Assembly: GCA_036867785.1 (NCBI GenBank)
Contig: CP145422.1
Coordinates: 434,001 to 498,000, forward strand
From: Plasmodiophora brassicae
Lineage: Eukaryota
DNA: 64,000 nucleotides
Direction: 5' to 3'
The notes under the pieces are model-generated. The model saw nothing but the letters and a program-made list of their open reading frames with translations, made no database searches and was not told where the DNA came from. Both the position numbers and the translations under genes were made by a program. Shown here piece after piece: positions 8,734 through 24,935 of this stretch (the stretch's first letter is position 1; each line of letters starts with the position of its first letter).

Positions 8734-9000
8734 GACGGCGGGCCGCCGTCGTCGTCGGTCGGCCGTTCCTGCAGCAGCGTTGTAACGCAATCACCCCAAC
8801 CGGGCGCGCGCTGGCCACGCCAACGCCGACGCCGCGCACTTCCCGCCCCGCTATTTCAGGTGCACCGCCCCAGTCACCGCGCAATATTGCGCGACTGCGC
8901 GACTGCAGCCCGCAGTCGGGGACAACCACGGTCCGTTTATTCGTCGGCACTGATAACAGCACGGTACAAATATAGAAGGTGCCCTGGCGTCGAATGCCGT

Positions 9001-11767
9001 CTACGACATGGCGGCGCGCGCGACCGTCGTCCGCTTCAGGGTGACCTCGTTGACGCGCATCGACCCGGTCCCGTCGACCTGCTGCTGCTGCTGCTGCTGC
9101 TGCTGCGGCAGCGGAGGGTTCACGGGCGGTCGACCGCCCGACGACCGGTTGTTGGCCGCCTTCAGGTTCCAGTTCGTGGTGTCGTTCAAATCGGGGCGGT
9201 ACACGATGACGTAGAAGTTGTACCACACGACGGAGATGACGGTCGTCAGCGTCGTCACCAGCAGGCCGGCCTCGCGGATGATGGCCGCCATCGACGCCTG
9301 CTGGATGCCGAGCGCGATGGAAAACGCGCCCGCCCCGATGAACGCCGTGTTGTACTGCAGGTCAGGTTAGGGCGCGCGTCATATACACGTGCGTGGGCAC
9401 ACGGGGGGTCGCAGCGGTTACCAGTGCGAATGCGATGCGCTTGGATTCGTTGAAGGCGTCGGCGACGTTCCGCGTCCTGATCGACTGGTACACGCCGATG
9501 ACGCTGAGGACGATCTTCGGCACGCAGCTGATGGCGATCCAGGCGGACGTGCTCTGCGACCGGCACATGTACGCGTACGTCTGGTCGGTCAGCGCCACTG
9601 CCTGGATGCGGAGCGGGTCCAGGACCTGCCAGGCGGCGCAGATCAGCGCCTCGACGGCCGCGACGCAGGCGACGATCTTGGCGAGGTCGCCGGACGACAT
9701 GACCTTGATCTGCAGCCTGTTGTCCCCGATCTGGTCGAACAGGCGCATGACGCGGTACGTCTTGGCGAACAGCGCCCCGAAGCAGATCGCCCAGCCGACT
9801 GAGATCGCCCAGACCTGCACCATGCACGACCGGTCGAGCACGACCAGCGACATGCCCAGCGACACGTCGAACGACATCCAGATGCCGGTCGTCAGCGCTA
9901 GGACGGCTCCGCCCATCATCAGCATGTTGAACGGGGCGCTCGACGCCTTCACGATCGGCTCCCGGCGGTACTGCCACACGGCGACCATCGTGGCGACGAC
10001 GATCGCGATCGCCGCCGTCGACAACAGGATGCAGATCGTGGCGATGCCGGACCCGACCGTCACCAGGGTCGGCTGCGGGCCGATCCTCAGGTCGAACACC
10101 TGCTCGGTGATCGTCGACACCTTCAACCCGGCCCGGATCGTCACCGCCCGCAGCACGACGCGCCCGCTCGTGCTGATCGTGAACGGGCCCGTGTACGGTT
10201 CCGACGAGTCGTCCGGCTTGCTGCCGTCGAGGGTGAAGTAGATCGTGGCCCCTTGCGTCGCCGTGGTCAGGTTGACCACCACCGGGCCGTTGCCGACGGT
10301 GTCAGACGCGTGCACCGTCGGCGGGTTCGACACGTTGAAGTGGACCTGCTGGCGCATGATCTCCATCTGGCCCAGCCAGGGCACGATGCCGTCGGCGCCG
10401 AGCGGGTCCAGCAGGATGCCCTGGAACACGCGGTACGCCAGGTTGAAGATCTCGGGCGGCGTGTCCCGGTCGAACACCTGGAACACGTGGTCGGCCCTGT
10501 TCAGGATGCCGAGCGCCTTCTGGTCCAGCGGGTTCGAGATGTTGCCCTTGGCGTACCTGTTGCAGGGTAGCCCCCAAGGGTTGAATGGCGCCGACGTGCG
10601 TCGCATCGAGGCCTCCTTCGACGCCAACCACCCGACAACCTCCATCGCCGCCTTCCGGTTGCGGACGCGGGCCGATATGGCGATCCCGTCGGCGGGCGCG
10701 TTCTCCCCAACCGGCAGCGACGTGTCGTAGATCGGGAACGGGAAGTAGTCGAGGCTGAGCCAGATGTCAGAATTGCTGCGATGGGCGGCGAATGAACGCG
10801 GCGTACTCGTCGACGAGGGCCCAGGCGTTGTACTGGACCCAGCCGCCAGCGTACCCCATGCCATGGGTGCCCTGGAAGACGCCGTCGGGCACGTCGCCCC
10901 CATTGCGGATGTCGTTCCGCGACACGTACCCGAGGTCGATGATCCGGATCCATTCCCTGAACGTGTTGACGACGGACGGGTCGGTCCAGGCGGTCTTGCC
11001 TTCGAGCAGGGCCTGGTGGGCGGCAGGGCCGTTGATGCGCATGTGGAAGTAGTCGAACCAGGTGACGCCGGGCCAGAGCGCCGCGTTGCCCATCTCGATG
11101 GGGCGCAGGCCGGCGCGCCGCAGCACCTCGCAGCAGAGCATCCACTCGTCCCAGGTGTGGGGCGGCGACAGGTTGTACCGCCGGAAGACCGACTTGCGGT
11201 AGAACATGCCCCAGTAGCTGAAGCCTGACGCATGTGCCATATTAGTAGGCGCGCGCCCGAACAGCGGATCCGGTTGCGCCCCAACTGATTGGGACGACGA
11301 ATGGGTGGCCGTTCGTCGCGTTCGACGCCCCTTTCAGCCAGCCGGCGTCGATCTGGTCGTACAGGTCGTAGTCCAGGAAGACCTGATACAGGTCGAGCAG
11401 CTTATTCTCAGCAATCAGGTTGCGCGTCCCATCGCCGCCCGAGTACTGCTGCAGGACCTGCCGTCGGGGCGGTCACACGACGTGGCGACCTGGTTCCGGT
11501 AGCGTTGGCGCGTACCTCTGGGCCCTGCTCGACCGACAAGTAGCTCCAAACGTCGTCCTTCATGGGCTGGTCGGTGGTCATGTAGACGACCAGCTTATAG
11601 TCGGGCCGCACGTCATTGACGAACGCGTTCAGCTCGTCGTACAGGAACGGCTCGTTGCCGATGTGGTCGAATATCAGCGACAGCGTCGACGTGGAGTTGG
11701 TCATCATGAAGACATCGGCGCTGGCTAGTAGGCGCAGGCAGAACCAGACGACAGCGGGCACCAGCAT
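9001..11767 (-). CDS. Class C (GABA-B-like) GPCR with a bacterial-type extracellular solute-binding domain and a chitobiase/Fn3-associated domain (multi-exon)
   Basis: Signal peptide MLVPAVVWFCLRLLASA. SBP motifs YWGMFYRKSVF and PPHTWDEW. Fn3-associated motif ATIYFTLDGSKP. 7TM_3 motifs IVKASSAPF, FGALFAKTYRV and FNESKRI. Poly-Gln cytoplasmic tail. Confidence 0.88.
9079..9105. repeat. (CTG)n microsatellite encoding poly-Gln in the GPCR tail
   Basis: About 9 tandem CTG units are visible. Confidence 0.9.
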
Positions 11768-12201
11768 CGACGCGCCCCCGACAAGGCTCCAGACACACCC
11801 AGGCCGCGGCGCTTCCTGCAGGACAGAGCTGACTGTCCCAGAGCGGAACTGTGCGGTCCTGTCCCGCAGTGCCAGGTGCAGCTCGCAGTGACTCGCACTC
11901 GGTGCCGCGCCGACCGGTCGTTCATGGTCGCCGACCCACTGCCCGCACTGCTGGGCACCGTTCGGTACTGCAGTCCACCGCCGTTGGCAAGTCAACACGA
12001 CGTCAACGCCATCGCGGCGTACCTTGACTGAACTGTGGCACAGTTAGCGGGGGTCTGACTTGGTTGGGAGCCTCCTCCCCACGGGCCGACCGGGCCATCG
12101 CGTCGCTCCACGCTAGTGGCCTTGCTGCACAACCCTAAAGTGGTCGAGTGCCTTCAGTTCAGTCAGAAGACCCATCTGCCGCCAAAAAAGGAGTCAACTA
12201 T

Positions 12202-12273
12202 GGGCCCTTCCGCGAATCGAACGCGGGACCATTCCGACCCTAACGGAATATTATGCCACTAAACCAAAGGGCC
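12202..12273 (-). tRNA. tRNA-Pro (AGG)
   Basis: Acceptor stem GGCCCTT/AAGGGCC, anticodon loop TTAGGGT, T-loop TTCGATT, and a downstream T6 Pol III terminator. Confidence 0.95.
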
Positions 12274-12531
12274 CGAACTGTGAGGCAACTGCCGTGGCTT
12301 TCTCTGATAGCAGGTGTTCAGGGGTCGCTGCAATGTTTAGGACGTAGATCTGGATCTGCCTGCAGCTGCCTGTGGACTCCGGAGGCGGTAGCAATGTGAT
12401 GAACGACGGGGTCATCTCCTGATCTGGCGCATGTAGCATGGTGCCGCCCGACACATCCGATGGCAGCGGCCGAATGTTCCGACAATTGCTGATATGTAGC
12501 ATGACTGTGTATGTAATCCGTCGTTATAGCG

Positions 12532-13254
12532 TTACCGGACCAAGATTGGCTGCGTCAGTATTTCGACGAATTTGATGACGAAAACTGGACCGAACAGAGC
12601 GAGTGCAAGACTACTGCAAACAGCCGTGCCGACCACGTTTCCTACCGTCGTCATCAGCGTCCGGTGCGCCGCAACAAGTTCCAGTGACGTCGACGATACC
12701 GGTGGAGCGCAGCGGCAGTTCCAGTAGAACTTGGCGTTGGTCGCCGGGTATGGCGCCACTCCGGCCACACTTTGGACATGGAGCAGCAGTGAACGCAGAG
12801 TGATGTTCTCGTAACAGTCAGAACGTTCTTCGAAGTAGGTCACGCCGTCAGAGCAGACGAATAGCTTCTGCTTTCCTCCTTGGCTCGCGGCAAGCCAGGC
12901 CGATAGCGATGACTTGGAATCCCCACTTCGGTATAGGTTCAGCTCGTCCTGGAAATTTCGCACCAAGCAAGCTAAAGCTTCGTTTCGGTGGACGTATCGC
13001 GTCGTCAATTTCGTCCTGCTTATCGGGGAACGGCAAGCACCCCATTCAAAGTTTCGGCACCACAAGGCCAGCCCCTTCAGCGAATACGAATGCCCATCGA
13101 TAGCCACGATTGGTGACGTCAACGGCTCCTGCAGTATTGGGCAGGTCAGGCCATACTGCTCCAGCAAGTCGTCGACACTATCGTCGGGGACAGCAGTAGC
13201 CGCTCTGCCCATCATCAGCAGCGCCAGACTCGCCAACAGAAATGACATCGCCAT
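12532..13254 (-). CDS. Signal-peptide U-box protein with a C-terminal hydrophobic segment
   Basis: Signal peptide MAMSFLLASLALLMMGRAATA. U-box LTCPILQEPLTSPIVAIDGHSYS...SPISRTKL...NEAL. The C-terminus is hydrophobic. No introns. Confidence 0.8.
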   Translation of the reverse strand: MAMSFLLASLALLMMGRAATAVPDDSVDDLLEQYGLTCPILQEPLTSPIVAIDGHSYSLKGLALWCRNFEWGACRSPISRTKLTTRYVHRNEALACLVRNFQDELNLYRSGDSKSSLSAWLAASQGGKQKLFVCSDGVTYFEERSDCYENITLRSLLLHVQSVAGVAPYPATNAKFYWNCRCAPPVSSTSLELVAAHRTLMTTVGNVVGTAVCSSLALALFGPVFVIKFVEILTQPILVR

Positions 13255-13506
13255 CGAAACCCGCCCTAAACCCAAGTGACCTGAAAACGCCATTCGGTGC
13301 CACCGGACGCCACGTGATGACTGATGACAGATGAGGTCGTCGCCCGTCGCCCCCCACCACGCACGCGCCAATGGTCACGCAGAGGCTGCAGCCCACGGTT
13401 GGCCGCTGGGGACAGTGTCGAGCCAGGAATAGCGTTGACTGCGGCTCCGTTGACTCGCGGCGTCCGTCACGGAGTCCGAACCGGACTACGTCCTACCGCG
13501 TCGTCG

Positions 13507-15195
13507 ATGGGGAAGACAAAGACACGGCAGCCCGCCAGTAGAGATGCTGCCGGGTCAGTACCGTTAGAGAACGGAGGGACCGGCGTTGAGCTTCATGCGC
13601 TGTCGGATAAGCTTCGAAGTCCGACTGTTTCGCACCGGTCTGCGGCCTGCATTTCGGTGGCGAACCTGGCCGAGCGCTGCAGTCGACAATTGCTCCAGGG
13701 TGGCATTGTGGCGCTGATTATGCCGCTTCTTCGCGATGCCGACGTTTCGATTCGTCGGCACGCCGCTGGGGCTCTGAGGAATCTCTGCGTTGCAGACGAC
13801 GCCGGCGTCGCCAATGAACTCCTGCGCCTCGACGCGTTCGACGCCCTCGTGAAGCTGGTCATTGAGACTGCTCCTGATGACGCATGCCTTCCGCTTCTAA
13901 TAGCCACGCTCGCTGATACGTTGCCGCCATCTTCCTCCGCTGTGCAGTCTGGTGCAATCTGGTCCCTCGCATCCCTCATCCAGACATCTCCAACTGTTGC
14001 CCATGCAATTCTCGACCTCTTCAGGGCGGTCGTCGAATCATCCCCTGAGGCCTCCGAAGCGTTGTTGACGAACAACCAGGCTGTACTTCCTGTCCGCTCC
14101 GCGCTGTCATCTGCATCTCCGTTGACGTCTGCAAATGCTGTCGCGCTGCTTGCTCTTGTCGCTAGGCAGGTCCCGTCCCATTCCAATGAGATTCTCGCCG
14201 CTGTTGTCCCCGTCCTAGGACGGTGGCTGTCCGTTGACCTGGACTCTGCCTTAGCCGAGCTCGCTTCGCATCATGCTGTTCGCCGTGATGCCGTCCAGGC
14301 CGAACTCGACAAGCAACGCGAAGCATACAACGGCAACCCGGGTTCGAACATGTTCCAGCCTACATTCGACGTTGACGCTGCGCTCGAGGAAGCGTGGGAG
14401 GTCCCGTTCCAAGCGTTTCGCGACCAGGCACTTGCCGTTATCACCGCCGCCGAGTCGCTAGCCAACCTGGTCTTCGTTGACGATGACGACGAAGGCGAAC
14501 GATGGGACGTTGCACAGGTTCTTCGTCAGGTCGACGGCATTGTCCCAGTTCTGCTGTCACGGGCGGCGTTATGCGTCGCACACGATGCCCGACCTCGTGT
14601 TGCACACTTGCTGACCGCCTGCGTTGAACGGTGCCTGGAGTGCCTGGGCAACATTGCCGTTTACGCCGACGATGCCAGCACGATTGCTGCCGGTGTCGTA
14701 TCGCTTCTCGACGCCCATGGCACGTCTGCCGCACCGTGCATCTTACGGGGCATTGCTCGTCTCCTGGCAGTCACGTTATCGTCGACCACCGATATCGGCA
14801 TGGTACGCGCCAACGCGATGGCATCGTTCGCAACGAATTCCCAAGACGATGGCGTTCGCAGCGCGTTCGTGTCAGCGTTGTCCCGCCTGGCGACCTGCAA
14901 CCGTCAGTACAGCGCCCCGGTAGGGGCGCTGCTCAAGGACCGTCTCGTCAACGACAAGAGCGCTCGCGTCTTCGTCGAATCCGCCAATGGCGTCATGGAC
15001 GTATTCGCGGACGATTGCGTCCATCAGCAGACCATCGCGGACCTTGACCTACTCGCCACGCTTCGTGCGGTCGTCAACGACGCATCCAGATGGAAATGCC
15101 ATCCGGGCTCCGATTACCCGGGCGCAAGCGACGACCTCGACGAGGCACGCGACAACCTGAACCAGTTCATTGAGTACCGCCTAAGATGTCCTTAA
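13507..15195 (+). CDS. ARM/HEAT-repeat protein, HEATR3/Syo1-like
   Basis: Basic N-terminus MGKTKTRQ, then LLRDADVSIRRHAAGALRNLC and a C-terminal NGVMDVFADD...NLNQFIEYR typical of HEATR3. Confidence 0.75.
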   Translation: MGKTKTRQPASRDAAGSVPLENGGTGVELHALSDKLRSPTVSHRSAACISVANLAERCSRQLLQGGIVALIMPLLRDADVSIRRHAAGALRNLCVADDAGVANELLRLDAFDALVKLVIETAPDDACLPLLIATLADTLPPSSSAVQSGAIWSLASLIQTSPTVAHAILDLFRAVVESSPEASEALLTNNQAVLPVRSALSSASPLTSANAVALLALVARQVPSHSNEILAAVVPVLGRWLSVDLDSALAELASHHAVRRDAVQAELDKQREAYNGNPGSNMFQPTFDVDAALEEAWEVPFQAFRDQALAVITAAESLANLVFVDDDDEGERWDVAQVLRQVDGIVPVLLSRAALCVAHDARPRVAHLLTACVERCLECLGNIAVYADDASTIAAGVVSLLDAHGTSAAPCILRGIARLLAVTLSSTTDIGMVRANAMASFATNSQDDGVRSAFVSALSRLATCNRQYSAPVGALLKDRLVNDKSARVFVESANGVMDVFADDCVHQQTIADLDLLATLRAVVNDASRWKCHPGSDYPGASDDLDEARDNLNQFIEYRLRCP

Positions 15196-15220
15196 ACAGT
15201 TACATACATTGAACAGCGAG

Positions 15221-18200
15221 TCACCAGTAGTCGGCACAGGAGCATTTGCCTTTGGAGAATCGGTGGTACCGGTTGGCATCCCTCATGTAGATCTCCCGGT
15301 CGTACAGAGCCGACAGCATCTTCGTAGCGGCGTGGCAGTCGGCGCAGACGCGAAGGTTCTTCGTTAAACGGATGGGCTCCCTGGCGGGTAACGCGTGCAG
15401 GGCGTATACGATCGCGATCTTCTCGCTGTGCTCGCAGACTGCCTGGCGCGCCGACGCCGTCGCCTTGCTGGTCACGACGGCCGTATCCGGCGAGTACCCG
15501 TGTCGGAACAGGCGCTTCAACACTTTGTCATGCTGGCTCTTGAACAGCGGATCCGACATGAACGTTGGGTCACCCGCGACGAAGTTCACCGATCGATCCT
15601 GCAAGTGCAGCGTGGTTCGCCCTTGGATCTTTTTAAACCCGGCTGCCACCATCTGTTGTCGGACGCGATCTGCGTCACCGGATCGTCCGGCGGCCGTGTA
15701 CATGTTCGCCATCTGGACGTGCGCTGCGGCGAGATGCGGCTCAGCTTCATCAACGGGCAGCCGGCGAAGTGCTGCGAACACGCGCTCAGCACGTTCCAGG
15801 TCACCGTGCTTGCGACATGCGCTTAGCAACGGCATCAGCGCCATGCCGTTCCGGGTGCCCGCCTCGGCCAGTTGTTCGGCGCGGTCCAGGTCGCCGGCTC
15901 GCCCATACAGATCGATCAGGCACGTTGTCGTGATCGGTCCCGGGCGAATGTTCCACGCCGTCTCGAATTCGGATAAGAACGCGTGCGCGAGGTCGACGTC
16001 GCCGACATGGTTGCAGCCAGTGAGCAGAGCACCCAGCGTCACAACACTGGGCAGGACGCCTCCCGATTTCATGGCCGCGAAGCACGACGAGGCCCTGTCC
16101 ATCAGGCCATGATGAGCATACACCGCGATCATAGCTGTGAACACGACGACGCCTGCAGCCGATTGCGTCTGGAAGACAGATTCAGCGTCCTCCAGGTGAC
16201 CGCAATGGCCATACGCCGAGATTAACGACGCAGCGACCCCATCGTCCTGGATCAGAACCCTTGTTTTCGCACAGCCGTGCAAGCGACGAATTGCAGAGAC
16301 GTCAGCGGATCGTTTACACGCGGCGATCACGCCCCGGAACAGTGCAACATCAACAGGGTGGCCTCGTTGCACCATTCGGTCGAATATCGACATGGCATCG
16401 CGCACACAATCTGCCTTGGATAACAGCGATACTGCAGCGGTGCACGTCTCAACGGACGAAGGACTGATCTGCCAGGTGTTCTCGAAGTCGGCGATCAGGG
16501 CACTTGCCTGGGCGACGTTGCCGGAACGATTGCATGAGGTCAGCAACGCACCCAGGGTGACGTCGTTCGGGCGAACGCCGGCTGCTTGCATGTCATCGAA
16601 GCAATGCGCGGCACGGTCGGGTGACCCATGACGCGCATACGCGGCGATCATGGCGTTGAACGCGGCGACGCCGGCACCGGGTGCGCACGCGAACACGCGA
16701 ACAGCGTCGGTGAGGGAATCGCAGCGTGAATAGGCGGAGATGGTGGCGCTGCGAACCCGGTCGTCCTGCAACAGGCCTGCAGCGCTCGAGTATGCCTCCA
16801 GCCTCTTCAACGTGGCAATATCGGCTCCGGCACCGACGAGTTCGGTGAAGACATGCTTAGCAACTGGGATGCCGTTGACCATCATCGTGTCGAACAGATC
16901 AATCGCTTCGGACAGATGCCCAGCTTTGCAGTAGAGCGACAGCGCGGTGGTCAGCGTCTCCATCGACAGCGGTTCTCGCAGCGTCTTCAGAACGTGAAGA
17001 GCTGCGTCGTATCGAGAGTGCCGAGTGTACGCTGCCATCATGGCGTTGCATATGCGTTCACTAGTAGCCGACACCGTCTTAAACACGTCTTCGGCAGCGT
17101 TAACGTCGTTGCAATCCGCATAGGCGGATATGAACGCGCTGAGCACGAACTCGTCGGCGAGTAACGACGCGGTGGCGCGCGCGTACTCGTGCAATCGTTT
17201 TACAGGCGCGACATCAGAACCGCGTCGGCAAGCGGACACGAGCGCTGACAGGGTCCGCTTGTCGACGGGAACTTTGCCCGCCACCATCGCTTCGAACAAG
17301 GACATGCCCTTCGACAGGTAATCTCTGGGATCGCCATCCCGCTCGCGAATGTACGCAGTCATCATGGCGTTGAAGATGGGCGCGGTAGGCACGGAAACGT
17401 TGGATCGCGTTTGGAATATGGATTCGGCGGTGCCGACGTCGTCACAGGCATCAAACGCGGACACGAACGAACAAACGACGAAGTCGTCACGCCACAGTGC
17501 TGGATCGCCCCTGCGTGCATGATCGTATAGGCGACGGAGGGACGTCGCGTCAAGGGCACGTTTGCAGGCGCCGATCAGGGTGACAAAGGTGCGCCCATCA
17601 ACCGGGACGCTGAAGCCCAGCATGCGATCGAACACGACCATAGCATGGGATAGGCGGCCGCTGGCGACAAGTGACGACAGCAGGTTCGTGCAGGTGATGA
17701 ACGACGGCGGCAACCCCAGGTCGTCCATCAGGGACAGGACATCGACAGCGGCGCCAGGTCGCCCTTGTGACAGAAGCGCTTTAATGAGGTTCCCGTATAT
17801 GGCCTGGTTATCGGGGAACGCCGGAACACGCCCGGAGCGCATCAGTCCCAGTAACGTCTGTGCGACATTGGCGCCCGTCGACGTCTGCGCTTCCGCACAG
17901 CAGACCGCGAACGTCGACGTCAACATCTCGCTGAATCCCACGTTGTTGCCGATGGCGTCGTCGACGAGAGGCAGTGCCAATGCAGGCTGTTTAGCGATTC
18001 TGCAGATGGTCGCAACGCATGCGATGACGTTATGCGACCGTGGCCCACACCGCGCGTACAGGTCAACGACATCGCGACAGAGAGGCGGGTCTGCGAGGCG
18101 GCAAGCGCTGCCGAACGTGCAGAACAAGGTGTCGTTGACGGCGATGCCCCGTTCGACAGCAGCGCGCAGGACGTCGGGCGCCTTGCCCGGCATGTGGTCC

Positions 18201-18454
18201 CGGCAGAACATCATCATGGCCTGGTAGAACGGGATACGCGGCTTCAGCCCGTACGCGTGCAGCACGTGCTGGAACGCGGACCATCCCCGATGCGGGTCCG
18301 GGTCCGCCTTCAGCACGCGGACCGCGCCCGGCACCGACGGCGCCCGCACGAACGCGTCGTACGCCGACGACGGCAACGACCGACGAGCGCCGGGTGGTGC
18401 CTCGGACAGTCGCCGCAGGCCAACGCGGGCCAGCGCACCGGCCCTGACCGGCAT
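15221..18454 (-). CDS. PLS-class pentatricopeptide repeat protein with E1-E2-DYW cytidine-deaminase domain
   Basis: Intronless ORF of over 1000 aa with a long PPR array, HSEKIA, KNLRVCADCH and terminal HRFSKGKCSCADYW. The Arg/Ala/Ser-rich N-terminus resembles a presequence. An alternative ATG lies at 18493. Confidence 0.95.
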   Translation of the reverse strand: MPVRAGALARVGLRRLSEAPPGARRSLPSSAYDAFVRAPSVPGAVRVLKADPDPHRGWSAFQHVLHAYGLKPRIPFYQAMMMFCRDHMPGKAPDVLRAAVERGIAVNDTLFCTFGSACRLADPPLCRDVVDLYARCGPRSHNVIACVATICRIAKQPALALPLVDDAIGNNVGFSEMLTSTFAVCCAEAQTSTGANVAQTLLGLMRSGRVPAFPDNQAIYGNLIKALLSQGRPGAAVDVLSLMDDLGLPPSFITCTNLLSSLVASGRLSHAMVVFDRMLGFSVPVDGRTFVTLIGACKRALDATSLRRLYDHARRGDPALWRDDFVVCSFVSAFDACDDVGTAESIFQTRSNVSVPTAPIFNAMMTAYIRERDGDPRDYLSKGMSLFEAMVAGKVPVDKRTLSALVSACRRGSDVAPVKRLHEYARATASLLADEFVLSAFISAYADCNDVNAAEDVFKTVSATSERICNAMMAAYTRHSRYDAALHVLKTLREPLSMETLTTALSLYCKAGHLSEAIDLFDTMMVNGIPVAKHVFTELVGAGADIATLKRLEAYSSAAGLLQDDRVRSATISAYSRCDSLTDAVRVFACAPGAGVAAFNAMIAAYARHGSPDRAAHCFDDMQAAGVRPNDVTLGALLTSCNRSGNVAQASALIADFENTWQISPSSVETCTAAVSLLSKADCVRDAMSIFDRMVQRGHPVDVALFRGVIAACKRSADVSAIRRLHGCAKTRVLIQDDGVAASLISAYGHCGHLEDAESVFQTQSAAGVVVFTAMIAVYAHHGLMDRASSCFAAMKSGGVLPSVVTLGALLTGCNHVGDVDLAHAFLSEFETAWNIRPGPITTTCLIDLYGRAGDLDRAEQLAEAGTRNGMALMPLLSACRKHGDLERAERVFAALRRLPVDEAEPHLAAAHVQMANMYTAAGRSGDADRVRQQMVAAGFKKIQGRTTLHLQDRSVNFVAGDPTFMSDPLFKSQHDKVLKRLFRHGYSPDTAVVTSKATASARQAVCEHSEKIAIVYALHALPAREPIRLTKNLRVCADCHAATKMLSALYDREIYMRDANRYHRFSKGKCSCADYW

Positions 18455-18678
18455 CGACGCCGTCAACGGTGGCGGCCGGGGGCGGGTTCGCATCTGCCTG
18501 CCCCCCTTCCGTTTTGCGCGTACGGATCACGCCCGATGCAGATCGGAACGAGCCGGGCCAGGCAGGCGCCCACCCACGAGCACATCCGCTGACCTGCCGG
18601 GAACTCCTGGGCGCGCCTCATTGTATCAGTATAGGTGGGCACTGCCCTGCGTAGGGAGGCCACTATTGATCTGTATTA

Positions 18679-18880
18679 TACAACCAGCAACAACTCAATT
18701 GAAGAAGATGCTACCTTCGTCCACCACCTCCTCCTCGAAGATATCGTCGTCAGCAATGCAGTCAAGGCCATCAGTCAAGGCCATCAGATGGCCTTGACTG
18801 CATTGCTGACGACGATATCTTCGAGGAGGAGGTGGTGGACGAAGGTAGCATCTTCTTCAATTGAGTTGTTGCTGGTTGTA
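18679..18880. repeat. Perfect 94-bp inverted repeat with a 14-nt loop
   Basis: 18679-18772 is the exact reverse complement of 18787-18880. The loop AGTCAAGGCCATCA duplicates the end of the left arm. Confidence 0.97.
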
Positions 18881-19672
18881 CCTCGTTAGCACGAAACCAG
18901 GGGCCGGCTTCCGGATCGATCCCAGTAGGCGCAGCTTGCAGTCCAGCAACTTGTCTAGCAGATTGGCGGCGCTCTCCCGTCGCAGCTCCATCGTGAAGTG
19001 TTCGAGAAAGAACGGCTTAGGTCCACAAGCCATCATGTTGATGACTTGTTTCCCCTGCACGTTCCCGGCACCGTCCAGCGTGAAGCAGATGAGAGTATGC
19101 TTAGCGAGATGGAGCAGAACGTCGTTCATGGTCAGCGCATATTCGGTTCGCATGAAATCGCCCCCGATCGCTTCGGTCGATGGAATCTTGAAGCTCCCGC
19201 GAAGCGCTTTAAAGAACGCACGCCACGACTCATGCTCAAACGCGGCAAAAGGCATCGATGTACGATGAACAGCACGAGCGAAGAGCTGCTGTAGATTCGC
19301 CAACTCCTCTCCCGACATCGAGTCGAAGTACTGGCGACCGCCGCCAGCGAGGAACAATGATGAATTCAATGGTTGCGCCATCACATCCTTGTCCACCACA
19401 CTGCCACCCGCGGATGAACTCGCAGCTGATGTGGATGCAGCACCCTTCGACGAATGTGCCGACTTCGCCGACTTCCGAGAGGGCTGGAAGCCCGCATCGA
19501 GCTGACCAATTGCGCGAGGTCGCTTCTTGCATTTCGCCCAATGATCGCGCAATCGCCCCGCTGCTGCAATAACGGCACCATCACATGCCAAGCACTTGCA
19601 GTACTTTGATTTAGAATCGCCCGAGCTGAACGGCTCGCTGAACATCTTCCAGATGTCATCCTTTGGCTTCAT
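18857..19672 (-). pseudogene. Truncated BED-zinc-finger / DUF659-type (hAT) transposase
   Basis: BED finger DIWKMF...CKCLAC...LRDHWAKC, then MPFAAFEHESWRAFFKAL and FTLDG (first catalytic Asp). The ORF stops inside the inverted arm. Confidence 0.85.
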
Positions 19673-19690
19673 CTTCGACACTGACGAAGT

Positions 19691-19813
19691 CTGCCTGCGG
19701 CCTCTGCCTGCCGCCTGCGGCCTCTGCCTGCCGCCTGCGGCCTCTGCCTGCCGCCTGCGCACTGCGCTGCGGCCTGCGCCTGCCTGCCGCCGCCGCCTGC
19801 GCACTGCGCTGCG
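19691..19813. repeat. 20-bp subterminal tandem repeat (CCGCCTGCGGCCTCTGCCTG)n plus variants
   Basis: About 3.5 near-exact units followed by degenerate units, lying between the transposase ATG and the right TIR. Confidence 0.9.
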
Positions 19814-20351
19814 GACACAGCCTATACAGTGTGTATAGTACCTCTGGAAGATGGGCGGGTATAATACCGCAACTATACAATATACGGACCGATAGAGGCC
19901 ACACACACACACACGGGTCACTGTCGTGTCCCGTTCCGTATCAGAGCGGGGGCCGCGGGCGGGGGTCCCTAGTTTAGTTTAGTTTTATTTGTTTTTCGCG
20001 CTTTCACACAGGCGCCTCGGTCTCGAGTCCGAGGATCGAAGGTTCAGCAGCAGAACGCCAACATTCCCCGGCCTGGCAGTGCCGGCCCATCGCCTTTGTA
20101 CTGGGTTCATCGCGCCTTGGACGATAGGCGGGGGTCCCTCTCGGCGAGCGTGGCGGAGTCCGCACGGGGCGGGCGCGGAGTCGCGTTGGTTGGTGGTCCA
20201 CCCGTCGATCGCCCGTTGCGATCGTCGCCCTGGACCAACACCGCAATCGTTGCAATGCGGGTGACGCGCCATCCGTGTTGTGACGTTTGAGGTGTTGTTC
20301 GAGGGCGGCGACCTGTCGCAAGACGGTGGCCGTTGTTTTATGTCGGTTCTG

Positions 20352-23209
20352 TCACCAATCCGTGTCGGACGGGGACGAATCGGTCATCGTCAGGGCGCCC
20401 TGGTTGAACTTATCGCGGGCTTCCGTACGCCTCGGTTTGGGGCGTGGCGGTTGCATGTAGGCGCCGGGTCCGGGCGTCGCTGTGGCTCGTGACGCCAAGG
20501 CCGCTTCCTGCGTCGTTGTGCTCATGGACAGGTGGGGCACCAGGACGACGATCGGCGCCGGTGCATCGTACCTCACCGATGGGTGCACCGGGTGCTCTTG
20601 TGCCCGGGCGCGTCTCGCCGCGCCGTGCCGCTGGAGCAGGACGACAATGATGATAACGAGCAGAAGCACGGCAATGCCCGCGACGATGACAATGGTCTGG
20701 TACGTGATGATCGACCCGAACGATGCGTCGTTCGACGCCTGAGGTTTCGCCGCCACCGGCGTCGCTGTCGTCCGCCGACGCGCTATCGTTGTTGGCGCAG
20801 GCACCCGTGTGGATGCGTGGTTAGCCCCAGGCACGCCGAACAACGCCGACGTGACGGCACGAACGGGTGTCGGTGCTGGCGTCGGCGCAGGAGTCGGGGC
20901 CACCACAGGCCCAGGAGTTGTCGCGACTGTCGCTGTTGACCCAGCGGGTATGGTCGGTATCGGTGTGGGGGTGCGCCAAGGCGCGGGAGACGGCGTAGGC
21001 GCCGAAGTGGGAGCAGGTGTGGGTGCGGGTGGCGTTATCGTTTGGATGCGACGAACCCGATGGTTTCTGAAGGCACACACACACACACACACGCCAGTCA
21101 GATCCTCTGGTGTACGCTCGAGCCTCGGCTGAGCCTACAGTTTGTCGGCGACGATGATGCTGGTCGTGCCGTTGATGGCGATGCAGGTCGGCTGGTTATA
21201 CGCAGCGGACGTTGGCGCGCCGTCCTGGAACCCGACCATGCCCGACCCCGACCAGGTCGACACCGCCCAGGTCGCCGCCTGCACCATCCGGATCCGGGAG
21301 TTGAGCTTGTCGACGACGAACACGTTGCCGACGGCGTCCACGGCAACGCTGACGGGGGCGTTGAAGGCGGCCGATGTCCCGACCGCATCGACGTAGGCCT
21401 GTGCCCCGCTGCCAGCGACCGTCGACACTGCCCCCGTCGGCGACACCATCCGAATGCGGTTGTTGTTCATATCGGCGACGTACAGGTTGCCGGTGGTCGC
21501 GTCGATCGCGATGCCCATCGGGCTATAGAAGCTGGCCGCCGCGCCCTGGCCGTCGCCGAACTTGCCAGCGCCGCTGCCGGCGACCGTCGACACGACGCCG
21601 GACGGCGACACCTTGCGGATCCGGTTGTTGTTCTGGTCGGCAACGTAGAAGTTGCCGGCGGCGTCCATGGCCAGGCCATACGGGCCGTTGAATTTCGCTG
21701 CGGTCCCAGCGCCGTCTGCGTAGCCGGGCGCCCCCGACCCCGCTAGCGTCGTCACGTTGCCCGACGGGGTCACCTTGCGAATCGCGTTGTTGTACCAGTC
21801 GGCGACGACCACGTTGTTGTCGCGGTCGACGACGACCATTGCCGGGTTGTTGAACGAGGCCGACCCGGCGGGGCCATTCACCAGGGCGGCGACGCCGTTA
21901 CCGGCGACCGTCGACACGGTCCCGTTCGGGGCGACCATCCGGATCCGATTCGAACCATCGCTGATTATCACGTTGCCGTTCGCGTCGAACGCCACTGCAC
22001 GAGGCTGGTTGAATACTGCCGTGCTGGCAGGCCCGTCCTGGTACCCGAGCGCGCCGGTCCCCGCCAACGTTGTGACGGTACCGGGCGCGTCCCCGGTCCC
22101 GCCGTCGACGATCTGGATTGACCGAATCCGGTTCTCCCTGCCAGGACAGTGCGATCAGCTGGGCGGCGCTGCTCGGGGCGACGGCCGGCTTACGCCTTGT
22201 CGGCGACGAGGATGTTTGTGGTGCCGTTGACAACGATGCCGGCGGGGCTGTCGAACTGTGCGGACGCAGGCCCACCGTCGAGGAACCCGGCCGCACCGGA
22301 CCCTGCCCAAGTCGACACCGCCCCCGTTGCAATCGACAGGACCCGGATGCGGTAGTTGAGTCGGTCGGTGACGAACAGGTGGCCCGCACTGTCCATCGTC
22401 AGGCTGGTCGGGTTGTTGAACGCCGCCTGCGTCCCGACGGGTGCGTCGATGTACGACGCGACGCCCGTGCCGGCCAACGTCGAAACGTATCCGGACGGCG
22501 AGACCGTCCTGATGCGATGGTTGCTTGTGTCGGCGACGTACAGGTTGCCGTTGGCGTCGATCGTGATCCCCAACGGGGAAAGGAAGCTGGCCGCCGTGCC
22601 CTGGCCGTCGGCGAACGCGGCGCTGCCACTGCCGGCGAACGTGGAGACGACACCCGACGGGGTCACCTTTCGGATTCGATGGTTGTTCTGATCGGTGACG
22701 TACAGGTTGCCGTTGCCGTCCAGGCAGGCGCCGTACGGGAAGTTGAACAGGGCGCCGGTCCCGTTGCCGTCCAGGTACCCGGCGGTGCCGTTCCCCGCCA
22801 GGGTCGTCACCCTGCCGGTCGCTGTTACCTTCCGAATCGCATTGTTCTGCCAGTCGGTGACGATCAGGTCGCCGTTGGCGTCGACGACGACCTGCGTTGG
22901 GTAACGGAAGCTGGCGGATGCGCCCTGTCCATCGGCGAACCCTGCTGAGCCGCTGCCGGCGACGAGCGATGTGACCCCGTTCGCGATCTTCCGAATGCAG
23001 TTGTTGTCGGAATCGGCGACGTAGACGCTGCCGAACGAATCCATGGCCAGGCCTCGGGGCGTTTTGAAAATCGCTTGCACGACGCGCCCCTCCAAGTACC
23101 CTGCCGTACCGTTGCCTGCGAACGTGGTCACAGGTCCAGGGGCCATGGCGCCCAGCCCGGTTGCCATCCGCCAGGCGGCAACCGCTATGACAACGAGCCC
23201 AAACGGCAT
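20352..23209 (-). CDS. Type I membrane protein with two NHL-repeat beta-propellers and a Pro/Thr-rich stalk (3 exons)
   Basis: Signal peptide, about 12 NHL repeats (F..P.G...D..GNLYVAD..N.RIR), a PAPT-rich linker and the TM helix IVIVAGIAVLLLVIIIVVLL. Confidence 0.9.
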
Positions 23210-23537
23210 TTGTGTGGACCGGCGCTCACTCAGGGCGGTATCAAGTGGAGTACGGCTCGATCGCGCGTGTTAGCTGAACACAAGCACTCGTCCATGTTTA
23301 ATGATAGCAGAGGCACGGCACGTACGTTATTCGTTGCGGCTCGCCACCTGAAGCGCCGCACCAGGTCGTAGGCGGCAGCGTTCAGAGCTGGGGCCGTCCA
23401 GCTGGTGGCAGAGATGGGGGGTCGCCCGGTGCGGACGTCCGGTGCGGGGTGCGGGCGAGTACGCGGACGTGACGCCAACGTCGCGGCGACTAAGTGCCAA
23501 GCATGGACGCCGGGCAGTGCCATGCATCGGCGTTGCG

Positions 23538-24935
23538 ATGGTACCTGGCGGCCCTGCTATTCACGATGAGCTTCGTGATGGGATTCCTATGGAACCTGGT
23601 GCGTTCCCAGGGAGGAGGGGTACGGCCGTAACGTCGCCGCTGAGCACGCGCTGGGTACAGATGAACGCGCTGTCGGGCATGGTGACCCGGAATCTGGGAA
23701 TCCATCCGGATTCGATTGAGGACGACACGCTCGTGGGCACCGCCGTGCTGTTGATCGCCTCCCCTGTGTTCGCGTTCTGGATGGCGAACGGCCGATTCCG
23801 CCTCGCCATGCTGGTATCGACGCTGTGCTCCTGCGCCAGTGCCTGGGTACTGCTACTGGGCGCCCTGCACCTCAGTGGCCGCATGATCTTCGTGTCGCTC
23901 GCTGTGAATGGCCTATCTGGGCCGATGGCTGTACGTCTGTGTGGTTGTCGTCGTCGCCCTGCCGACATTGATGGGTGAAGCGCTCTGCAGATGTTTGGTG
24001 GCGTAGCGCTGAGCGACCTGTGGTTCCCGTGTCATCAGCGGACGAGGGCGACCGCCCTGCTCTGCTCCGCGAATTACCTCGGGGTCGGAGTCGCGTTCTT
24101 GGTCGGGTCCATCGTCATCAAGGACGATGCCGCCATTGGTGCACTCGTGCGCCTGTCCATCGCCATTTGTGCGGTCACGACCACCGTCTTCATTCTGACG
24201 GCTATCCGGTTCCCGTCCGCACCTCGCCACGCGCCGTCGCTGTCACAGGCTCTTCGCCACGCGCATCCCATGCAACACGACCCGTCGCGAAGCGGATACT
24301 TCGCGTTGGCGTCCAGTGCACCGTTCTGGCGCATCGCGCTGTGCTTCGCACTGGGGTCGGGAATCTACGCCGGTTGGGGCGGATCGCTATCGGTGAACCT
24401 GGCCCAGTTCGGGTTCACCCAGGAGCAGGCCGGGTGGATCGGGTCCGCCGGTATCTTCGGCGGGTTCCTCGGAGGGTACCTATTCGCCATGCTGTGCGAC
24501 AGCAAGCGTGCCCCGCTGCAACAAGTTACGCTGGCGCTGTTCGTCATCAGCGGCGTCTCCCTGCTCGTGTTCCTGTTCGGGTGCCGGAACGCCTGGGGCG
24601 TCGTCCCCCTAGCCGTTGCATCGTCGGTCGCCGGCGCAGGCATCAACGGCACGATACCGCTCCTGCTAGAACTCGCAATGGAGGCAACCTACCCGATACC
24701 AACGGCCTCCACCGGGAACGTCATGACGGCGGCGAACAGTATCGGCGCCGTCGCCTTCCTGATGGTCCCCATCGACACTGTCGGGACACAGTGGATGAAC
24801 TGGGCCCCCTTCGCTGCCTGCGCGCTCTCCGCCTGCCTCCTTGCTTACCCGCCTGTACGCTGCAGGCGCCGAGAGATCGACGTCGCCGATCCGGCCACGC
24901 TTCCGATCCTCCACGACGACGGTCATGACAGATAA
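23538..24935 (+). CDS. MFS transporter, SLC49/FLVCR-like (start uncertain, introns)
   Basis: Multiple TM helices, with LSDLWFPCHQRTRATAL and LLELAMEATYPIP motifs. Confidence 0.8.

Follow-up and report, generated by a model that had tools for sequence, protein, structure and literature searches.

The window analysed here (64 kb of contig CP145422.1 of the Plasmodiophora brassicae assembly GCA_036867785.1) carries on its minus strand an intronless gene for a plant-type pentatricopeptide repeat (PPR) protein of the PLS class that ends with E1, E2 and DYW deaminase parts. It is a native nuclear gene of P. brassicae, a plant parasite of the Rhizaria, and belongs to a family of at least 24 paralogs that, with some metagenome proteins, form a clade apart from the Naegleria, rotifer, Balamuthia and vascular-plant proteins sampled. 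Judged from its sequence, from a structural model and by analogy with known systems, the encoded protein is best read as a site-specific factor of mitochondrial C-to-U editing, and we consider this its probable role.

The gene, its protein and its transcripts

A single open reading frame (ORF) of 1090 codons extends from the first ATG to the stop with zero frame breaks or internal stops (Table 1). A preliminary description, made from the letters alone, had already called the gene intronless and this holds true; its end at 18454 corresponds to a second in-frame ATG (M14), which is an alternative start and the start of the public model of 1077 amino acids, and the first ATG is at 18493. Residues 850-1090 show 100% identity to PBRA_004378 of P. 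brassicae (1077 amino acids, on a 658-kb contig). By this identity the organism is indeed the plant parasite that had been suspected. Public names of PBRA_004378 are “hypothetical protein” (NCBI) and “DYW domain-containing protein” (UniRef).

The product is a PLS-class DYW-type PPR protein: a PLS array ending with P2-L2-S2 is followed by E1, E2, a deaminase domain and the DYW end, and the feature of the class that it lacks is a conserved PG box. Pfam detects PPR_2 (E 7.7e-63), PPR (E 3.6e-60) and, at residues 999-1090, DYW_deaminase (PF14432, E 1.2e-30, profile positions 1-93 of 93). We compared the last 400 residues with 118 other DYW proteins in an alignment and built motif hidden Markov models (HMMs) from those others only. 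With the exception of a five-residue insert in E1 this part is collinear with the consensus L1-S1-P2-L2-S2-E1-E2-DYW. The alignment places the motif borders at 716-750 (L1), 751-781 (S1), 782-816 (P2), 817-852 (L2) and 853-884 (S2), and the HMMs score 26.2 bits for P2, 22.8 for L2, 25.8 for S2, 21.9 for E1 (E 1.4e-8), 26.2 for E2 (E 5.3e-10) and 135.7 for DYW. Thus, Pfam, the alignment and the HMM assignment recommended in the preliminary description all support its central claim of a plant-type PLS-E1-E2-DYW gene in a non-plant eukaryote.

According to a manual parse the 19 motifs follow the order P-P-[L1-S1-P]x2-P-L1-S1-P2-L2-P-L1-S1-P2-L2-S2. When Pfam PPR models were applied piece by piece within residues 230-884, 11 of 13 P or S pieces matched in register and 0 of 6 L pieces did, as a PLS array should behave. 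The P2-L2 HMMs match a second time at residues 609-679. Residues 546-715 and 716-884 are identical at 67 of 166 positions (score 287 against a shuffled mean of -28, standard deviation 14); this means that a five-motif module was duplicated internally.

In the DYW domain the zinc ligands, HSE, CADC and the terminal CSCADYW are present as first noticed, and so is H1077. The invariant columns of an 80-row alignment are L890, H1022, C1050, C1053, H1054, H1077, C1084 and C1086; all of them except L890, which lies in E1, are zinc ligands. The C-terminal 203 residues align over their full length with a synthetic PPR-DYW protein crystallised with its target RNA (9kfx, E 8.8e-49, covering 9-211), and the sequence alignment also reaches the DYW domains of OTP86 and DYW1. 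For residues 880-1090 an AlphaFold model based on the 80-row alignment has a predicted local distance difference test (pLDDT) value of 94.6 and a predicted template modelling score (pTM) of 0.88. Its top Foldseek match is 9kfx_A (E 7e-19, template modelling score, TM, 0.88 normalised to the query, root-mean-square deviation 2.4), followed by 7o4e, 7o4f and 7w86 (E 1e-8 to 1e-9; TM 0.85 normalised to the target for the OTP86 DYW domain). In this model the E1-E2-DYW module takes the solved PPR-DYW fold.

The first 60 residues contain 11 Arg, 0 Lys, 1 Asp and 1 Glu, and among 12-residue stretches of the first 40 residues the highest mean on the Kyte-Doolittle hydrophobicity scale is 0.92. By composition the N-terminus looks like a presequence, as the preliminary description had it, and unlike a signal peptide. 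Arg-rich and acid-poor starts are found also in the longer gene models of many P. brassicae DYW paralogs.

Twenty public runs, none of them recorded as RNA, contain the stretch, and contigs of four runs from four studies (X1, X2, X6 and X13) were aligned to window positions 9000-24000. In neighbouring genes these contigs skip stretches of 51-62 nucleotides with GT..AG or CT..AC ends (e.g., 10754>10807 and 23597>23660), and parts of the region have no coverage (in X1 and X13 the depth is 0 at 18519-19520). From the spliced joints together with the uncovered parts we infer that the contigs derive from spliced RNA. In all four runs they cover the DYW-PPR ORF with 0 differing letters; since contig depth cannot rank genes, the claim is limited to presence in RNA. 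A single X1 contig spans 12699-18500 and joins the gene to its neighbour. Since in three of the four runs the contigs stop close together (Table 1), the transcript likely starts slightly upstream of the first ATG; the X6 contig ends earlier, at 18314.

At the 3' side the X13 contig skips 51 nucleotides that X1, X2 and X6 read through. The skipped stretch overlaps the last 41 nucleotides of a convergent SYO1-like ORF; it is probably an optional intron in the 3' untranslated region of the DYW-PPR gene, and the arrangement suggests that the transcripts of the two convergent genes overlap. Three joints inside the ORF (15432>16638, 15439>15878 and 15898>17172) were rejected as introns and are regarded as assembly or paralog artefacts, having 21-letter sides and non-canonical ends.

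Table 1. Features of the DYW-PPR gene and its convergent neighbour (positions of the window; residues of the 1090-residue protein)
Feature	Position	Strand	Basis or remark
Complete intronless ORF, PLS-E1-E2-DYW PPR protein	15221..18493	-	1090 codons + stop at 15221-15223
Contig-end zone, likely transcript 5' end	18479..18504	-	X13 18479, X1 18500, X2 18504
N-terminal 60 residues, presequence-like	18314..18493	-	composition only
Degenerate helical-repeat-like pieces, n = 4 (residues 85-229)	17807..18241	-	0/4 match Pfam PPR
19 PPR motifs, PLS order (residues 230-884)	15842..17806	-	manual parse + HMMs
Duplicated five-motif L1-S1-P2-L2-S2-like module (residues 546-715 vs 716-884)	16349-16858 vs 15842-16348	-	
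E1 motif (residues 885-921), 5-residue insert vs plant consensus	15731..15841	-	alignment + HMM
E2 motif (residues 922-954)	15632..15730	-	HMM
DYW cytidine-deaminase domain (residues 955-1090, 136 amino acids)	15224..15631	-	Pfam, HMM, fold
PG-box region KIQGRTTLHL (residues 955-964)	15602..15631	-	Gln for Pro; RTTL for plant xSWI
HSE (H1022, E1024; residues 1022-1024)	15422..15430	-	catalytic zinc ligand + proton-shuttle Glu
CADCH (C1050, C1053, H1054; residues 1050-1054)	15332..15346	-	zinc ligands
CSCADYW C-terminus (residues 1084-1090)	15224..15244	-	C1084, C1086 = second zinc site; DYW tripeptide
51-nucleotide skipped stretch, CT..AC ends (GT..AG on minus strand)	15155..15205	-	X13 contig only
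SYO1-like/ARM protein ORF, convergent neighbour	13324-15195	opposite to DYW-PPR gene	

A family of paralogs and its phylogenetic position

A search of 1.84 billion representatives with the E1-E2-DYW part gave 2459 matches at E ≤1e-3 and 237 at E ≤1e-30. Of 30 representatives from among the best matches, which were looked up by name, 22 are from P. brassicae, six are JGI/ENA/Logan proteins, one is from Carica papaya and one from Balamuthia mandrillaris. Together with PBRA_004378 and PBRA_006614 the 22 proteins amount to at least 24 P. brassicae DYW-PPR paralogs, each in a separate 50%-identity cluster. The gene is thus a member of a large family and not a sporadic single gene, a point that the preliminary description had missed.

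Every zinc ligand is retained by all 24 paralogs (CxxCH 24/24, CxC 24/24); the DYW end is found in 14 and the PG dipeptide in seven. At the HxE position 14 of them, PBRA_004378 included, have Glu, two have Asp and eight another residue. The catalytic Glu is replaced or changed in P0155, P0141, P0149, P0136, P0164, P0167, P0175 and P0210 and also in P0142 and P0161. Such complete retention of CxxCH and CxC, with Glu in 14 of 24, fits a family under selection. PBRA_004378 is among the catalytically complete members, save for the change from Pro to Gln in its PG box. By analogy, paralogs without the catalytic Glu resemble the plant E+/DYW-degenerate factors, which depend on the deaminase of another protein acting in trans. 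Several nuclear P. brassicae DYW proteins, encoded on contigs of 1-2 Mb, are labelled “unnamed protein product (mitochondrion)” by NCBI; this label looks like a record-level artefact and is not evidence of localisation.

The DYW phylogeny that had been proposed as a check was reconstructed in three ways. In a FastTree reconstruction of 266 E1-E2-DYW segments all named P. brassicae proteins fall in one clade. The IQ-TREE “quick” tree of 73 rows and 210 columns likewise unites the 24 P. brassicae proteins in one clade (Shimodaira-Hasegawa-like approximate likelihood ratio test, SH-aLRT, 92), and these, together with six metagenome rows, stand apart from the other 43 on a branch that has a length of 0.51 and support 100. 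Those 43 comprise Ginkgo, a conifer, ferns, a lycophyte, angiosperms (with six Brassicaceae) and three Logan proteins, which make 42, and Balamuthia. In a tree of 70 rows with one Naegleria and eight rotifer proteins added, the P. brassicae proteins again form a clade, with support 94 by themselves and 97 when four metagenome rows are included, and plants, Naegleria, rotifers and Balamuthia all lie beyond a branch with support 99. When P. brassicae is forced together with the six rows of Brassicaceae, the log-likelihood falls by 99.5 units (P value of the approximately unbiased test, p-AU, 0.0024). This rejection and the separate clade argue against contamination or a recent host-derived transfer, and the transfer from the host that the preliminary description had put forward is thus not supported for the present host family. 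The trees are unrooted and contain no bryophyte, fungal, paradinid, Physarum or Acrasis rows, therefore we name neither a donor nor a direction.

The metagenome proteins P0131, P0123, P0124, P0127, P0125 and P0254 branch off at positions between the plants and the P. brassicae family. They come from short contigs, and their PG boxes are intermediate between the P. brassicae and the plant forms. These proteins may originate from unsequenced plasmodiophorids or other soil protists; the JGI contigs of P0123, P0125 and P0127 have about 0.9-1.3 kb without gene context. A metagenome scan revealed no closer relatives (the best 80 of 561 confirmed loci are 35-41% identical), and a search with region 440-662 of the nearest metagenome sister, P0131, found no named close relative, the next best match being at most 45% identical. 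Outside Plasmodiophora the best named matches are land plants with 34-40% identity over E1-E2-DYW, and at the top are Ginkgo and ferns, not Brassicaceae.

Proposed function and competing explanations

As a mitochondrial editing factor the protein would be made from the nuclear gene and directed to the mitochondrion, where its PPR array would bind a single specific transcript or a small number of them and its E1-E2-DYW module would deaminate the cytidine immediately 3' of the bound stretch to uridine, as happens in land-plant organelles and in Naegleria. We infer this location, an RNA target and deaminase activity from the complete catalytic apparatus, the modelled fold, the conserved family, the presequence-like N-terminus and the precedent of known systems. 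The presence of at least 24 paralogs suggests that P. brassicae has a multi-site mitochondrial editing system.

Several points weigh against an editing function. The Pfam E_motif model reaches 26.2 bits, slightly under its cut-off of 27.3, and the RNA origin of the four runs is deduced from spliced joints, no run being recorded as RNA. The fifth and last residues of the S motifs are C/T, S/S, S/G, A/G and T/M, which we take to lie outside the plant PPR code; about seven of the 19 motifs give combinations that are presumably canonical (T/D three times, N/D, N/N, N/S and S/D). With such non-canonical S-motif residues no target is predictable with confidence. The PG box reads KKIQGRTTL, as written in the preliminary description, that is with Gly and the preceding Lys-Lys kept and Pro changed to Gln; in moss PPR56 a P2A change in the PG box is reported to alter editing strongly, depending on the target (PMC10482289). 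The Lys preceding the PG box, described as important in PPR56/OTP86 (PMC7611903), is retained in the P. brassicae protein, the strands of the PG-box hairpin are predicted at residues 959-963 and 968-972 with pLDDT >90, and a survey from 2026 describes the PG box as variable in non-plant DYW domains (PMC13386178). Finally, the paper on the P. brassicae mitochondrial DNA (mtDNA) mapped transcriptome data and, in its available parts, reports no editing and does not say that editing was sought (PMC6823432).

Of the other explanations the most serious one, possible yet on balance unlikely, is that the protein serves as a mitochondrial RNA-binding factor in a different step, namely group II intron splicing, transcript stabilisation or cleavage, with the DYW domain being structural or without deaminase function. 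In plants, splicing or RNA cleavage is the task of some DYW-type PPR proteins. Moreover, ten of the 24 paralogs are without the catalytic Glu and 17 without the PG dipeptide, which means that deamination cannot be the function of every paralog. The published mtDNA is said to be strikingly rich in introns, with a count of 54 and with splice sites left unresolved (PMC6823432), and would need many RNA factors. In contrast, PBRA_004378 itself possesses HSE, CxDCH, both zinc sites, the DYW end and a confidently modelled deaminase fold, and a non-editing role does not sit well with the zinc ligands kept throughout the family. That we are dealing with an expressed but decaying family member without a remaining role appears improbable: the degenerate PG box, the non-canonical code residues and the loss of catalytic residues in several paralogs could be read in this way, but the frame of 1090 codons is intact, zinc ligands and catalytic Glu are kept and four runs show 0 differences.

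Still more improbable is that the protein is secreted into host cells as an effector and targets their organellar RNA. The parasite lives inside plant cells, and in infected Arabidopsis roots host PLS-class PPR genes are up-regulated at night; the paper reporting this speculates that the parasite manipulates host organellar editing and, as far as its available parts go, concerns host genes only (PMC13247141). However, the Arg-rich N-terminus is without a signal-peptide-like hydrophobic core, many paralogs start in the same way and the S-motif code residues depart from plant norms, so the action on host RNA that the preliminary description had thought worth testing gains no support. The chance that plant DNA contaminates the assembly or that the gene was recently transferred from a Brassicaceae host is minimal. 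It is true that land plants provide the closest named matches outside Plasmodiophora, but these are Ginkgo and ferns, all plants are found across the branch with support 100 or 99 and the constrained tree is rejected; in addition the G+C content is that of the surroundings, the neighbours are of protist type and contigs join the gene to its neighbour.

Genomic surroundings, related systems and significance

The DYW-PPR gene has a G+C content of about 0.60 that matches its surroundings, and no second DYW/PLS gene was found within the 64-kb window. The flanking genes are ordinary protist nuclear genes, in agreement with the earlier view that they speak against plant contamination. Besides the convergent SYO1-like gene they encode WDR55, a class-3 G-protein-coupled receptor with chitobiase-like domains, an RGS-FYVE protein, a cyclase and two NHL-repeat proteins. 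The two NHL-repeat beta-propeller genes are adjacent (21135-21938 and 22190-23209, minus strand; Pfam NHL E 7e-23 and 2e-39), and the product of the second has a hydrophobic start and may be secreted. An ORF of 271 amino acids at 18857-19672 (minus strand) has a Cys/His-rich N-terminus and zero Pfam matches. In X2 and X6 it is covered by RNA-like contigs, but in X1 and X13 most of it (18519-19520) has zero depth; it may be a transposon-derived or strain-variable gene.

With the DYW editing factors of land plants (OTP86, moss PPR56 and the synthetic PPR-DYW protein 9kfx) the P. brassicae protein shares the order of parts, the unequal lengths of P, L and S motifs, the DYW domain of 136 residues, the HxE...CxxCH...H...CxC zinc sites, the DYW end and the modelled fold. 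Unlike them it has IQGRTTL in place of xPGxSWI and a five-residue insert in E1, and the last residues of its S motifs are not Asp or Asn. Furthermore, it belongs to a rhizarian parasite without plastids and is placed outside the clade of all sampled vascular-plant proteins. A parallel case is Naegleria gruberi, a non-plant protist that also has a small nuclear family of plant-type DYW PPR genes. Mitochondrial C-to-U editing is proven there (Knoop and Rudinger 2010 and Rudinger et al. 2011, as cited in PMC13386178 and PMC11946409) and predicted here. The Naegleria protein in the tree (P0360) lies on the plant side of the branch with support 99 and not with P. brassicae, which points to a separate lineage.

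Among Rhizaria, paradinids (Ascetosporea, Endomyxa) are reported to perform mitochondrial C-to-U as well as A-to-I editing and to have 1-3 PPR-DYW sequences, which share a deletion with the fungal ones and group with fungi (PMC11946409, 2025). The same paper states that C-to-U editing had never before been reported in rhizarians, and its available parts do not mention Phytomyxea. Thus both paradinids and P. brassicae are endomyxan parasites with PPR-DYW genes, 1-3 in the former and at least 24 in the latter, as compared by published description. The DYW-PPR genes of bdelloid rotifers and Balamuthia mandrillaris are generally read as horizontal acquisitions (PMC13386178). The eight rotifer rows are united in a clade (support 99) that the split from P. 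brassicae leaves with the plants, and Balamuthia stands on this side too, beside the ferns. The protein of this free-living amoebozoan (P0129, KAL6053490.1, 961 amino acids) has a fully plant-like PG box, KEPGRSWI, keeps its place beside the ferns in both trees and looks like a separate plant-derived acquisition.

The survey from 2026 counts “31 DYW in Rhizaria” without naming the species in its main text (PMC13386178), and most of the 31 may well come from P. brassicae. In the literature searched, mostly at the level of titles and abstracts, no description of a P. brassicae DYW-PPR family or of editing in Phytomyxea was found. Known already are DYW-PPR genes outside plants and the machine annotation of PBRA_004378; new to the searched literature are the large separate family and the predicted editing.

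A wider scenario, to which we give an even chance, is that P. brassicae and probably also the unsequenced soil relatives behind the metagenome sisters perform plant-like multi-site C-to-U editing in an intron-rich mitochondrion. It would be carried out by at least 24 DYW-PPR factors, and for the roughly one third whose catalytic Glu is missing another protein would have to provide the deaminase in trans, as DYW2 does for plant E+ proteins. In this scenario the family would have been either acquired long ago or retained from an ancestor, independently of the DYW genes in Naegleria, rotifers and Balamuthia. If true, this would be the first multi-site C-to-U editing system of such a kind in Phytomyxea. 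Outside plants DYW-type PPR genes are reported to have predicted mitochondrial C-to-U editing wherever it was tested, i.e., in Naegleria, Acrasis and paradinids, and at least 24 genes in an important crop parasite predict dozens of mitochondrial editing sites, a prediction directly testable with public RNA-seq and mtDNA data. The annotation of the P. brassicae mtDNA is still unsettled: start codons are odd and splice sites unclear. Editing that went unrecognised could account for part of this and would change the predicted mitochondrial proteins. As a deep branch separate from the other sampled non-plant DYW lineages, the family also provides an independent data point on whether such genes were repeatedly transferred from plants or have an origin older than land plants.

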